A DNA stretch of 64,000 nt from Escherichia phage vB_EcoM_G8. This document shows, piece after piece, positions 41,379 through 45,978 of the stretch; positions within the stretch are counted from its first letter, which is position 1; the number at the start of each line of letters is the position of its first letter. A program made the position numbers and the translations under genes. The stretch lies in sequence record NC_054915.1. The stretch is one strand, 5' to 3'. Below the pieces are notes generated by a model. It was not told the origin of the DNA. It did no database searches and saw nothing but the letters and a program-made list of their open reading frames with translations.

Positions 41379-41849
41379 TTAATCATGTTTCCACACCCCA
41401 TCGGTATTTGACCAAAGTCGCTGATTATCTGATCCTCGCCACAGCTTTTTAGTCGGAAGATTTTTCTCATACTTCCCATCAATAATAACATCAACATATT
41501 TAAGCATTTCTAGTTGTTTAATATCTTCAAACTTATATCCTGCCCACAACCAAATGCTTTTATTGGGATAAAGATTTTTAATAGTTTGAACCACAGAGTG
41601 AATCACGTCTCTGTTATCAGGATAAAGAGGGTCACCTCCGGTTATAGTCAATCCTTCTATATAATCATTATTCAAACATTCAATTAATTGTTCTAGTGTT
41701 TCACCAGTGAATGGAATACCATTTCTAGCATTCCATGTTGATTTATTATAACACCCTTCACATTTATGCAAACAACCCGTAACGAAAAGAACGACCCTGC
41801 AACCAGGGCCATTCACAAAATCGCAAGGATAAAATCTATCGTAATTCAT
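41379..41849 (-). CDS. nrdG: anaerobic ribonucleotide reductase activating protein (radical SAM)
   Basis: 156-aa ORF; CxxxCxxC cluster in FVTGCLHKCEGCYN. Confidence 0.9.
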   Translation of the reverse strand: MNYDRFYPCDFVNGPGCRVVLFVTGCLHKCEGCYNKSTWNARNGIPFTGETLEQLIECLNNDYIEGLTITGGDPLYPDNRDVIHSVVQTIKNLYPNKSIWLWAGYKFEDIKQLEMLKYVDVIIDGKYEKNLPTKKLWRGSDNQRLWSNTDGVWKHD

Positions 41850-43119
41850 TGATGCTTAACCCTATGCATGATTTCTTTATTTTTACCGAGATTAAATCCG
41901 CGTTCGTTCGGGTTTCCAAGATATCCGCATGTTCTTCTTATTGTGTTCATCTTTTTAGGATCAGTTTCTCCACAAATAGAACAAACAAATCCGTTTTCAG
42001 TAGGAGTCATTTCATGGGTACTTCCGCATGTAAAACATTTATCTACCGGCATGTTAACACCAAAATAATCTAAATGTTGTGCAGCATAATCCCACACAGC
42101 CTCAAGACCTTTTAAGTTATTTTTCATATCAGGAAGTTCAACATAAGAAATGTGACCACCTGTCGCAATGAAATGATATGGCGCTTCACGAGAAATCTTT
42201 TCAAACGGAGTAATATTTTCTTCTACTGAAACATGGAAACTGTTAGTGTACCAGCCTTTATCGGTAACATCTTTTACACTTCCATATTTTTCTGTATCGA
42301 GTTTACAGAAGCGATAACAAAGGTTTTCAGCAGGAGTAGAATATAAACTAAAAGCAAATCCGGTTCTTTCAGTCCACTGTTTAAGATGAGCATTCATTTT
42401 AGTTAAAATTTCTCGTCCAATACCACGACCAACAAGAATATTCAATTCGTGAATACCTATGTATCCTAGGGACACTGAACTTCTACCGTTTTTAAATAAC
42501 TCAATTATATCGTCATCAGGTTTAAGACGAACCCCGAATGCACCTTCTTGGTAAAGAATAGGAGCAACAGTCGCTTTAACTCCTTTTAAGGAATTGATTC
42601 TACACATCAATGCTTCAAAACATAAATCCATTCGTTCATTGAACAATTCGGCAAATTTCTGTTCATTGAACTGTGTTCCAATATAAGAATCTAACGCAAT
42701 ACGAGGAAGATTCAATGTTACAACGCCAAGATTATTACGTCCATCAAGAATTTCATTACCAGTCGAATCTTTCCATACGCTCAAGAAACTACGGCAACCC
42801 ATTGGAGAAACAGGAATAGATGAACCAGTGATAGCTTTATTATTCTTAGCTGAAATAATATCAGGATACATTCTTTTGCTTGCACACTCTAGAGCAAGCT
42901 GCTTAATATCATAGTTCGGATCGTCTTTATAAAGATTAACACCTTCTTCAACGAACATAACAAGTTTAGGGAAAATAGGAGTTATCCCGTCACGACCAAG
43001 ACCTTTAATACGATTTTTCAGAATTGCTTTCTGAATCATTCGTTCAGTCCAGTCAGTTCCCGTACCAAATGTAATTGTTACAAAAGGTGTTTGCCCGTTT
43101 GAACTGAATAACGTGTTCA
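41846..43119 (-). CDS. nrdD: anaerobic ribonucleotide reductase NrdD, exon 2
   Basis: contains glycyl-radical motif RRTCGYLG and C-terminal Zn-ribbon cysteines; joined to exon 1 gives 605 aa. Confidence 0.88.
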
Positions 43120-43146
43120 CTTCATCAATGTGTTCAGTAGAGTTCG

Positions 43147-43923
43147 CTACTTCTCTACCCGTTTATATGAAACAATGTAATTTGGATAATTGTCATCTAA
43201 ACACAAATCTTTAATACGACTTGGGTGGAGTTTTAAATCTTTAGCAGCATCCACAAATGATTTATAGATATTGTCATTTATTTTAACATATTCTGGGACG
43301 GGATGAATTGTTATTTTTATATCTATAACATTTGGATGATTACTAACCTGTTCTTCAGAGCATTTAAGAAATTTTGCAGCTGATTTAAAACTTCTAAATT
43401 TATTTCCGGATTTTAAAGCTATAGAAACAGTCTTTTTAGCCGTTCTACTACCAATATTATTTTTAACATGAGCTTCACTTCTACTATTATTTTTATAATG
43501 CTCAATCAATTTCTCTCGTATCTTATCTTTATGTTTTAAAGATAAGATTTTACCTTTATGGGCATTACTAAGTTTTTGCTTATGTTCTTCTGAATCCGGA
43601 TATTTGTTAAATTTATATCCACCTATAGATTTATTAAGAATAAATTCGTTATTAAAATATTTCCTAATAAGCATTTCTTCATGTTTAAGGGCCGATTCAT
43701 AAGAATCAAAAACTTGAAGAATTATCCACTTAGCTTTATAATCTTTAAGCTTTTCTTTAACAAGCTTAGATGACGAATTGTATTCTTTCCAATTTGTATC
43801 TTTACCATATATAGTTTTGAATTTTTTAAAACCTATATAAAAAGACTTATCAGGAAATCTTACCATATAGGTAAATGCTACAGAATTGGCAAGTTTTAAG
43901 CTTTTTCTTAATTTCCATTTCAT
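43147..43923 (-). CDS. intron-encoded GIY-YIG homing endonuclease (I-TevII-like)
   Basis: 258-aa ORF inside intron; GIY-YIG-like FTYMV...FYIG N-terminus; length equals I-TevII. Confidence 0.8.
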   Translation of the reverse strand: MKWKLRKSLKLANSVAFTYMVRFPDKSFYIGFKKFKTIYGKDTNWKEYNSSSKLVKEKLKDYKAKWIILQVFDSYESALKHEEMLIRKYFNNEFILNKSIGGYKFNKYPDSEEHKQKLSNAHKGKILSLKHKDKIREKLIEHYKNNSRSEAHVKNNIGSRTAKKTVSIALKSGNKFRSFKSAAKFLKCSEEQVSNHPNVIDIKITIHPVPEYVKINDNIYKSFVDAAKDLKLHPSRIKDLCLDDNYPNYIVSYKRVEK

Positions 43924-43930
43924 CGTTTCA

Positions 43931-43955
43931 CCTCGTATTCATATTTATACGAGGA
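43931..43955 (-). promoter_or_regulatory. late promoter TATAAATA inside an 8-bp hairpin that would sequester the I-TevII RBS in read-through transcripts
   Basis: plus strand cctcgtat-tcatattta-atacgagg; tatttata at about 43942-43949. Confidence 0.65.
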
Positions 43956-44152
43956 TAAACAGCTGCATGTCACCATGCAGTTCAGACTATATCTTCAACT
44001 CTTAGAGTTGTCTGCCGTTTCGGGTCGCTTGACCCTACTCCCTTACATTCATCAGGGATAGTCGTTGGGCATTTACAGCTACTGCTGATTTAGCAACGGA
44101 TTGTCTCAGTGAGAGTTTCCCGTTTTAGGCAGATTTTACATGAGCTTGACTT

Positions 44153-44696
44153 ACGTTAACTCATAAGCTTGGAATGCATCGTATACGTCTTTTTCTGTTT
44201 TAGATTGAGCATAATTCAACGCATCAGCGATTTGCCATTTTTCTGCATCCTCAATATGTTTTGCATAGGTGCGTTTAACATAAGGAGAAAGTACTTTATC
44301 TACATTCGCAAATGTAGTTCCGCCATACTGGTGTGAAGCAACTTGTGCAGTAATTTGTGCCATAATTGCAGTAGCAACACCAATCGATTTAGGCGTTTCA
44401 ATTTGAGCATTGCCTAATTTAAATCCGTTCTCAAGCATCCCCTTTAAATCGACTAAACAGCAATTAGTAAAAGGCAATGATATACTGTAATCTAAATCAT
44501 GAAAATGAATTAATCCAACATTATGGGCATTTACAATATGACTTGGAAGAATACGACAAGCGATATGTTTAGAAACAATACCGGCCATTAAATCTCTTTT
44601 TGTTGGAAAGACGCGAGAATCTTTGTTGGCGTTTTCTGTATTTAATTCTTTATCTTTATTTGAAATAAAATTTAAAACATCTTTTTCTAAAGACAT
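44153..44696 (-). CDS. nrdD: anaerobic ribonucleotide reductase NrdD, exon 1
   Basis: 181 codons from MSLEKDVLNF... to ...AYELT before the inferred 5' splice site. Confidence 0.85.
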
Positions 44697-45508
44697 AATT
44701 CTAATTTATCCTTTTGAAATTCTTCGTCTAAATATGGGTTCCAACCCATTTTAAACCTTTTGATGAAATTATCAATTCTAAATTTCGGTAAGTTTAAATC
44801 CACAAAAATAGATGATTTACTTTTAAAATCTGGACTTAAATAATCATATAAAATTTCTGCGTATTTTAACCATAATATACAAGTACCAGATTTAATTGCT
44901 CTCGGAGTTTTCCAAGGTTTTACACCATACATCGGATTTCCACTTCCTTTATGCCTGATAGAAGATGAAATTCCAATTTTAATTTTAGCTTCCTTTGTAT
45001 GCGAAAATCCACGATGTGGATTTTCTTTCCAGTATTTTTTAGAAGCTTCTGATATTTTCTTTCTGGCTAAATTAGTATGATGCTTTCCATAAAATCCATG
45101 ATTTTTGCCTTTATTACGATTTCTTTTAATCATGGTTATTGATTGCTTTTCTCTAGTTTCTTTAGAAGGAGAAACACCGTACGTTGTAAATTGACCATCA
45201 GCATATGCTAAATTAAAATACTCTTTATTCCATATATCTTTTTCTATATTCTTTTGAAATTCAGCTTCAATGCTAGTTATTTGCTCATCTCCGACTAATT
45301 GAAAATATAATATTTCAACTTTCGGCGTTTCTTTCAACAGGGCTTTTTGAAATTCGGAAGATGACGAAGACGAATAATAAAATTTACCATTTTTATCAAT
45401 AATATTCGTTCCGTCAAAAGTGCAATTAGTTTTACTTCCAATGTAATAATATGGCGGGGTTTTAGCATTAATTCTATTAATAAATGATAGTTTATATACT
45501 ACATTCAT
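44687..45508 (-). CDS. Seg-like GIY-YIG homing endonuclease with NUMOD3-like motifs
   Basis: 273-aa ORF; VYKLSFINRINAKTPPYYYIGSKT GIY-YIG module; overlaps gene 49 start side and nrdD start. Confidence 0.75.
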   Translation of the reverse strand: MNVVYKLSFINRINAKTPPYYYIGSKTNCTFDGTNIIDKNGKFYYSSSSSSEFQKALLKETPKVEILYFQLVGDEQITSIEAEFQKNIEKDIWNKEYFNLAYADGQFTTYGVSPSKETREKQSITMIKRNRNKGKNHGFYGKHHTNLARKKISEASKKYWKENPHRGFSHTKEAKIKIGISSSIRHKGSGNPMYGVKPWKTPRAIKSGTCILWLKYAEILYDYLSPDFKSKSSIFVDLNLPKFRIDNFIKRFKMGWNPYLDEEFQKDKLELCL

Positions 45509-45978
45509 TTTAAACTCTTTCTAAGCTGCTTCTTGAATGAAGCTATTAATTGTGTTTTGGTGTCAGATTCATTATATTCAAATCCTCTTTGAAGCATCTC
45601 GGCCATCATTTCCTCTTTTCCTAAACGAGAAAATTCCTTTGATTTATCTCCAACGAAGTTAGGGTGAATATTATTTTGGGTGTAATCGGATTTTAAATAA
45701 GTAAGTAAATTTTCTAACCATTCAAGATAATCAACACCTTGCCCCTTTAAGCCAGAACGATTAAATTTATGTTTCATTTGACCTTCTGCGGCATTGCAGA
45801 GATTACAAAGCAATCCACGTACCTTTCCTGCTTTTGGTCCATTTAATTCATGGTCATGGTCGAGGTGATTAGCTTGAACATCAGGATTTAGTTCTCGTTG
45901 GCAAATTAAGCATTTACCATTTTGTGCATCATAAAATTTCTGTTTTTCTTCTTTATATAATTTGCCAGTCAATAACAT
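45505..45978 (-). CDS. 49: endonuclease VII (Holliday junction resolvase) gp49
   Basis: 157-aa ORF; zinc-binding CxxC..HLDHDH..CNLCN; T4 gp49 length. Confidence 0.9.
   Translation of the reverse strand: MLLTGKLYKEEKQKFYDAQNGKCLICQRELNPDVQANHLDHDHELNGPKAGKVRGLLCNLCNAAEGQMKHKFNRSGLKGQGVDYLEWLENLLTYLKSDYTQNNIHPNFVGDKSKEFSRLGKEEMMAEMLQRGFEYNESDTKTQLIASFKKQLRKSLK

Follow-up and report, generated by a model that had tools for sequence, protein, structure and literature searches.

The nrdD locus in the 64-kb stretch of NC_054915.1 analysed here (the window) raises the question of whether nrdD is one gene or two and, if one, where exactly it is interrupted. On the minus strand, the list of open reading frames holds a 181-aa frame corresponding to the N-terminus of NrdD (44151-44696), a 258-aa frame corresponding to I-TevII (43147-43923) and a 424-aa frame with a GTG start corresponding to the C-terminus of NrdD (41846-43120). 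We are highly confident that the explanation is a T4-type nrdD (sunY) group I intron, complete with I-TevII and the hairpin over its ribosome binding site, lying on the minus strand at 43126-44158 in a Tequatrovirus other than T4. This reading is carried by what was observed here of the sequence identity, the structure-model match, the P1 helix, the junction peptide, the hairpin and the co-conversion patch, and no evidence contradicting it was found in this analysis. The system has been textbook material since the late 1980s, and the discovery value is small. The practical value is a corrected, single-gene annotation of nrdD. The locus is also a clean case, from nature, of homing into a backbone other than that of T4 with only a very short tract of exon co-converted.

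Identity of the Intron and Its Catalytic Core

The whole 64-kb window was scanned against Rfam. The single match at the gathering threshold is to the group I intron model RF00028 (44194->43963, minus strand), at 105.3 bits (gathering score 50 bits; E 2.8e-26) and over the full length of the model (1-253 of 253). By BLAST, the interval 43120-44152 has one mismatch (99.9% identity) to each of T4, T4T, RB55, RB59, PST and Manna. A base-by-base comparison places the sole mismatch to T4 at window position 43893, with C instead of A; phage fPS-2 shares the C at this position of the intron (266). In the T4 record, the same interval lies inside a two-piece nrdD CDS and holds a feature described as 'I-TevII homing endonuclease... 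encoded by group 1A intron in nrdD'. The preliminary description, made without database searches, had proposed an nrdD group I intron, and both the structure match and the alignment to the T4 sunY intron bear it out.

From Rfam, BLAST, the base comparison and the frame scan described below, the intron is 1033 nt long and runs from UAACGUAAGUC... to ...ACACAUUG (43126..44158, minus strand). The catalytic core comes first. Elements P1-P9 occupy 43963..44165, as determined from the covariance-model alignment, a minimum-energy fold and a test for a P1 helix anchored by a U·G pair; the part within the intron is positions 1-196 (44158-43963), with P3-P9 extending down to 43963. Next are the hairpin, promoter and ribosome binding site (intron positions ~198-235, 43961-43924) and the I-TevII frame (positions 236-1012, 43923-43147). 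Folding the last 75 nt of the intron gives a 7-bp hairpin over the I-TevII stop codon (positions 1000-1023, 43159-43136). The last 10 intron nucleotides, UGAACACAUUG, follow that hairpin and end in the terminal G (position 1033, 43126) set by the frame scan. The frame thus follows the core on its 3' side, with ~840 nt separating P9 from the 3' splice site.

The core modelling that the preliminary description had proposed as a check gave a clear outcome: when the exon end and the core were folded together without constraints, the minimum-energy structure contained P1, P3, P4, P5, P6, P7.1, P7.2, P8 and P9. The P1 drawn in the Rfam alignment falls wholly within exon sequence, and it was dropped in favour of the U·G-anchored P1 on the basis of the fold and the pairing test. 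Inspection by eye for a classical P10, in which the start of exon 2 would pair with the guide sequence, gave nothing convincing. The core sequence is fully identical to that of T4. Self-splicing of the T4 intron is well established, reportedly by the work of Gott et al. in 1986 and Shub et al. in 1988, and by virtue of the complete core identity the intron in the window would be expected to do so too.

The core also has more distant likenesses. The segment 43960-44135 (minus strand) shows ~80% identity over ~115-175 nt to unannotated sequence of the Salmonella phage GRNsp7 and of AY262155.1, a second record for phage U5. Both matches probably represent a related core belonging to a different T-even intron, for instance that of nrdB.

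The Splice Junction

The preliminary description had split the gene at a U-ending exon 1 and a G-ending intron, placing the intron at 43120-44152, and had noted that this gives a 1033-nt intron and a 605-aa NrdD. The intron length and the 605 residues stand, but both boundaries are off by 6 nt. We slid the two splice sites jointly from -12 to +12 with the length fixed at 1033 nt. Only two frames combine a U-ending exon with a G-ending intron, shifts 0 and -6, and both encode 605 aa. Shift 0, 43120-44152, gives the junction peptide AYELTLNTLF; shift -6, 43126-44158, gives AYEYEVNTLF. A U-ending exon, a G-ending intron and a preserved length do not, then, define a unique junction, and a check of P1 and an intronless homologue are needed as well.

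The protein sequences decide for the shifted frame. T4 NrdD in PDB 1H78 (605 aa) reads ...DAFQAYEYEVNTLFSSNGQ..., in agreement with an AYE|YEV junction, and the bacterial NrdD 9d3x reads ...LEYEINTLFTSNGQ... (LEYEINTLF), which is close to it. The intronless alleles of Shinka, RB27, D5505 and SG1 are collinear and encode YEYEV; nrdD of Shinka is 1818 nt, equal to the spliced gene of the window. The RNA structure points the same way. At the shifted site, P1 is a 7-bp helix of exon UAUGAGU (44165-44159) with GCUCAUG (44145-44139), and its U·G pair (44159/44145) falls at the 5' splice site. We chose 43126-44158 because the 1H78 and 9d3x peptides, the intronless alleles and the P1 with its U·G pair all favour it, and on this comparative evidence we place the intron 6 nt upstream of the earlier assignment on both sides.

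Insertion at this point falls between codon bases, GAG U|AU GAA. Exon 1, defined by the frame list, the frame scan, P1 and the junction peptide, is 538 nt long and ends ...GCUUAUGAGU (44159..44696, minus strand). Exon 2, defined by the frame list and the frame scan, is 1280 nt including the stop codon and starts AUGAAGUGAACACG (41846..43125, minus strand). The corrected annotation is one 605-aa gene, nrdD = complement(join(41846..43125, 44159..44696)). The predicted spliced junction is ...UAUGAGU|AUGAAGUG..., corresponding to ...GCUUAUGAGU|AUGAAGUGAACACG in DNA. Under the standard group I mechanism, guanosine would attack after the exon 1 U held in the U·G pair of P1, and exon ligation after the terminal G at 43126 would then produce the 605-aa NrdD reading ...AYE|YEVNTLF.... 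The spliced product and 1H78 align over their whole length, with a score of 1329 bits. Its C-terminal glycyl-radical motif, RRTCGYLGNP, is present; the crystallised 1H78 is a G-to-A mutant there.

An intron lying exactly at 43120-44152 would have exon 1 ending ...UUAACGU, exon 2 starting UGAACACG and NrdD reading ...AYELTLNTLF; its spliced junction would be ...GAGUUAACGU|UGAACACG. This frame is stop-free, with a U-ending exon, a G-ending intron, 1033 nt and 605 aa, and it coincides with the ends given in several GenBank split-nrdD records, which derive from open reading frames. Against it, its peptide conflicts with the YEYEV of 1H78, with every intronless allele examined and with bacterial NrdD, and a U·G-anchored P1 there has only 2 bp, compared with 7 bp when the splice site is moved 6 nt upstream. 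Its apparent fit arises because the exon 1 frame reads 6 nt into the intron before reaching TAA (44153-44151) and because a GTG codon (43120-43118) spans the supposed boundary between intron and exon 2. The two junction regions (UAUGAGU|... and ...|AUGAAGU) are themselves alike because the protein reads Y-E-Y-E there. With the 43120-44152 junction, the co-conversion comparison against intronless Shinka yielded 12 differences bunched at -8..+14, a cluster that proved spurious, and the peptide showed the odd YELTL; these two oddities led to the 6-nt correction. We consider this placement very improbable. The preliminary description had itself counted a junction at a different position against its proposal; the junction does lie elsewhere, so the boundary detail fails and the identification of the intron stands.

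Less probable still, to the point of being negligible, is that nrdD is truly two polypeptides of 181 and 424 aa flanking an endonuclease gene, with no splicing. Gene callers do return the frames 44151-44696 and 41846-43120 (GTG start), and three public records, Manna, PST and fPS-2, carry a split nrdD. The sequence separating the two frames, however, contains a group I core of full length, with P1 properly formed and a terminal G; the T4 record annotates one joined CDS on identical sequence, and in the T4 crystal structure one 605-aa chain continues across the junction. The split annotations are artefacts of the frame callers. In the Manna, fPS-2 and PST records, the two CDSs ("nrdD-A/nrdD-B") have frame-derived ends: the first runs 6 nt past the 5' splice site to an intronic stop codon, and the second opens at a GTG that lies 6 nt into exon 2. 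Since those ends come from calling open reading frames, the residues at the junction are wrong.

The I-TevII Gene

The 258-aa frame matches T4 I-TevII at 257 of 258 residues, the sole change being I11L, and on this near-identity we identify it as I-TevII, an endonuclease of the GIY-YIG type. The preliminary description had recognised an I-TevII-like frame in the 3' part of the intron, which agrees with its location at intron positions 236-1012, after a core at 1-196. In profile searches, the frame matches PHROG 314, 'homing endonuclease', at 8.9e-28. Its match to Pfam SegE_GIY-YIG is weak, at 20.5 bits under a curated cut-off of 25, and NUMOD1 and NUMOD3 give weak Pfam matches just under their cut-offs. 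In the translation, residues 17-31 show an FTY...YIG motif. By analogy with its near-identical T4 counterpart, the protein would be expected to retain cleavage activity in the phage of the window.

I-TevII is said, from the work of Bell-Pedersen et al. in 1990, to cut downstream of the insertion site, 13-15 nt past it. The motif TGAACAC occurs twice on the minus strand in this vicinity, at 43127-43133 (in the last 8 intron nt, just before the terminal G) and at 43113-43119 (exon 2, +7..+13). As a candidate I-TevII operator, we compared the homing site with the late-promoter region just upstream of the I-TevII frame (43924-43943, minus strand); the two are identical at 14 of 20 positions, a value reached in 74 of 2000 shuffles, and no weight is placed on the candidate. 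As far as the citation in PMC3984707 conveys it, Loizos et al. 1994 reported that sequences flanking the frame resemble the I-TevII target. The TGAACAC repeat and the 14/20 likeness agree with that report as it is relayed there, though statistically the agreement is weak.

The Hairpin and the Late Promoter

Immediately upstream of the I-TevII frame, folding gives a hairpin that sequesters the ribosome binding site (43924..43961, minus strand). It has an 8-bp stem of CCUCGUAU (43954-43947) with AUACGAGG (43938-43931) and a 5-bp outer helix of 43961-43957 with 43928-43924. The order on the minus strand is ...UGUUUAU CCUCGUAU AAAUAUGA AUACGAGG UGAAACG AUG. By sequence and fold, the 3' arm contains the Shine-Dalgarno GAGG of I-TevII (43931..43934), at a distance of 7 nt upstream from the AUG. 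The fold is at -15.6 kcal/mol against a shuffle mean of -6.0 (z -4.3), and 0 of 200 shuffles were as stable. In a 90-nt context, the 8-bp stem is kept (z -3.8).

A pattern match finds the T4 late-promoter box TATAAATA at 43942..43949, where it takes in three nucleotides at the end of the 5' arm and five of the loop. The box shows no enrichment in the 64-kb window, with 4 copies against 11.6 ± 4.0 expected from shuffles, and its weight as a late promoter comes from position and literature, not from statistics. Its under-representation is consistent with the presence of mainly early and middle genes in the window. The usual T4 late-promoter spacing puts the start near 43936. From that spacing and the T4 literature, late transcription would be expected to begin at about this position, and an RNA starting at 43936 folds with the ribosome binding site and AUG unpaired (-2.7 kcal/mol).

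In transcripts starting upstream of nrdD, the hairpin and outer helix would bury the GAGG, and I-TevII would consequently not be translated. Late in infection, transcription from TATAAATA inside the hairpin would start at ~43936, and since that RNA lacks the 5' arm, the ribosome site would be free. The same arrangement is described for I-TevII in PMC2988022, which cites the primer extension of Gott et al. 1988 for a late promoter whose position prevents late transcripts from forming the hairpin, and again in PMC2330249. The late promoter within an 8-bp occluding hairpin that the preliminary description had picked out is thus upheld by the fold statistics, by the position of the box and by both of these papers.

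Homing Footprint and Distribution

How the intron reached a non-T4 phage can be read from the flanking exons. Over -150..+150 around the insertion point, the window equals intronless D5505 except at -2, +8, +11, +14, +15, +17, +20 and +137. At the seven that run from -2 through +20, it has the bases of the intron-containing phages, and at +32, +35 and +38 it has those of D5505, not those of T4. The bases at +32 and +38 also differ from Manna and fPS-2. All 4 of the 4 intron-containing phages compared have the exon sequence GAGT|ATGAAGTGAACACGTTATTCAGTTC, and the common intronless allele is GAAT|ATGAAGTAAA(C/T)ACTCTCTTTAGTTC. The diagnostic sites (T4, Shinka, RB27, D5505, SG1) delimit a minimal co-converted block of the intron plus exon -2 to +20 (43106..44160, minus strand).

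We read the -2..+20 patch as the footprint of homing co-conversion on a D5505-like recipient, a reading drawn from the pattern of shared bases. The right end of the conversion tract lies between +21 and +31; on the left, donor and recipient are the same out to ~-150, hence that end is not locatable. I-TevII would have cut an intronless nrdD near the insertion site, and repair would have copied the intron and a short stretch of flanking exon into the cut allele. T4 introns are known to carry adjoining exon sequence along when they home, which is a characteristic mark of the process (PMC2988022).

Identity to T4 is 99.9% in the intron, 80.5% in exon 1 and 96.2% in exon 2. Sandegren and Sjöberg reportedly described, in 2004, a "recent transfer" pattern in which the intron is closer than the exons, and the contrast seen here appears to be that pattern.

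About 23 records carry the intron at a minimum of 99.1% identity, among them all T4 records, T4T, RB55, RB59, PST, Manna, fPS-2 and U5, and 621 have an uninterrupted junction. Exact-pattern scans of IMG/VR returned 0 matches for the spliced T4-type junction and 0 for the exon 1/intron junction, so these counts owe nothing to that collection. Two types of homing site are found: that of T4 and SG1 is GAGTATGAAGTGAACACGTTATTC, and that of RB27 and D5505 is GAATATGAAGTAAATACTCTCTTT. The intronless Salmonella phage SG1 (MF001354.1 156200-156499) is identical from -7 to +31 to the flanks of the intron-containing phages, and its site is either a susceptible empty site or the product of precise intron loss. 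Unlike SG1, most intronless phages carry the variant site. The RB27/D5505/Shinka-type allele has 6-7 synonymous differences from the T4-type target, clustered at -2 and from +8 to +20. The +8 to +20 cluster surrounds what we take to be the I-TevII cut position. We entertain, as a tentative suggestion that is more doubtful than not, that this allele has been selected as a poor I-TevII substrate that keeps the intron rare, and that the window holds one rare successful invasion. If so, it records an invasion with a tract ending between +21 and +31.

There is also a slim chance, somewhat better than that of either reading weighed at the junction, that the intron splices and is immobile, either because I11L inactivated I-TevII or because the intron is a decaying remnant. 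The protein does carry that one amino-acid change relative to T4 I-TevII, and decay occurs in this family, given that the endonuclease of the T4 nrdB intron is defunct (PMC1865063). The frame is nevertheless full length at 258 aa, without a frameshift or stop; the change from I to L is conservative, and fPS-2 shares the base. The hairpin, promoter and ribosome binding site are intact as well, and the small extent of the co-converted patch, in a phage whose backbone is not that of T4, speaks for recent successful homing.

Comparison with Other T-Even Introns

The T4 nrdD (sunY) intron, of subgroup IA2, is in the same gene at the same insertion site with the same length of 1033 nt, and 1032 of 1033 bases are shared. 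Its frame has the same place 3' of the core, with the same hairpin, late promoter and ribosome binding site. The window differs from T4 in its genome backbone and in I11L of I-TevII. The nrdD introns of Manna, fPS-2, PST and U5, which are likewise non-T4 Tequatroviruses, are the same intron at 99.1-99.9% identity, and across the surrounding 4.7 kb Manna and fPS-2 also have their genes in the same order, with ~97% identity to the window. The intron, its endonuclease and the hairpin enclosing the late promoter are therefore already known; the window departs from the published system in two respects, the host backbone and a single conservative substitution.

The T4 td intron with I-TevI is a parallel case, a group I intron in a nucleotide-metabolism gene that encodes a GIY-YIG endonuclease. 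The td intron frame is looped out of the core. Unlike td, the frame in the window follows P9. In the td system, a late promoter and a hairpin that sequesters the ribosome binding site are likewise described, along with homing accompanied by exon co-conversion (PMC2988022). I-TevI cuts upstream of its insertion site.

The Host Backbone and the Neighbouring Genes

The 64-kb window (NC_054915.1) belongs to a Tequatrovirus related to T4 but not T4 itself. Over the 4.7 kb around the intron, identity to T4 is 95.2%. The record collection holds no identical counterpart of the window, the best over those 4.7 kb being 97.1% (Manna and fPS-2). A further 21 kb of the window is ~97% identical to fPS-2.

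By the list of open reading frames, the minus-strand neighbours are endonuclease VII (gene 49, 45505-45978) and a 273-aa frame (44687-45508) on one side of nrdD and nrdG (41379-41849) on the other. The T4 mobC, an HNH endonuclease gene in the interval between nrdG and nrdD, is absent here, and nrdG directly overlaps the nrdD stop codon (41846-41849). In contrast to the window, fPS-2 has endonuclease genes at all three positions around nrdD.

The 273-aa frame between gene 49 and nrdD overlaps the start codon region of nrdD by 10 nt. It resembles a free-standing homing endonuclease, with matches to PHROG 7504 (4e-34), PHROG 314 and Pfam NUMOD3 (5.5e-8). In T4, gp49 abuts nrdD with no gene between, whereas Shinka, fPS-2 and many other Tequatroviruses carry an endonuclease gene of the 273-aa type there. 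Next to this frame, NrdD residues 2-73 (44480-44696, minus strand) are strongly diverged from T4 and hold 29 of the 33 amino-acid differences; codons 2-73 in the window follow the Shinka-type allele. The divergence in the 5' part of nrdD resembles the boundary of a replaced segment, linked to the endonuclease gene beside it.
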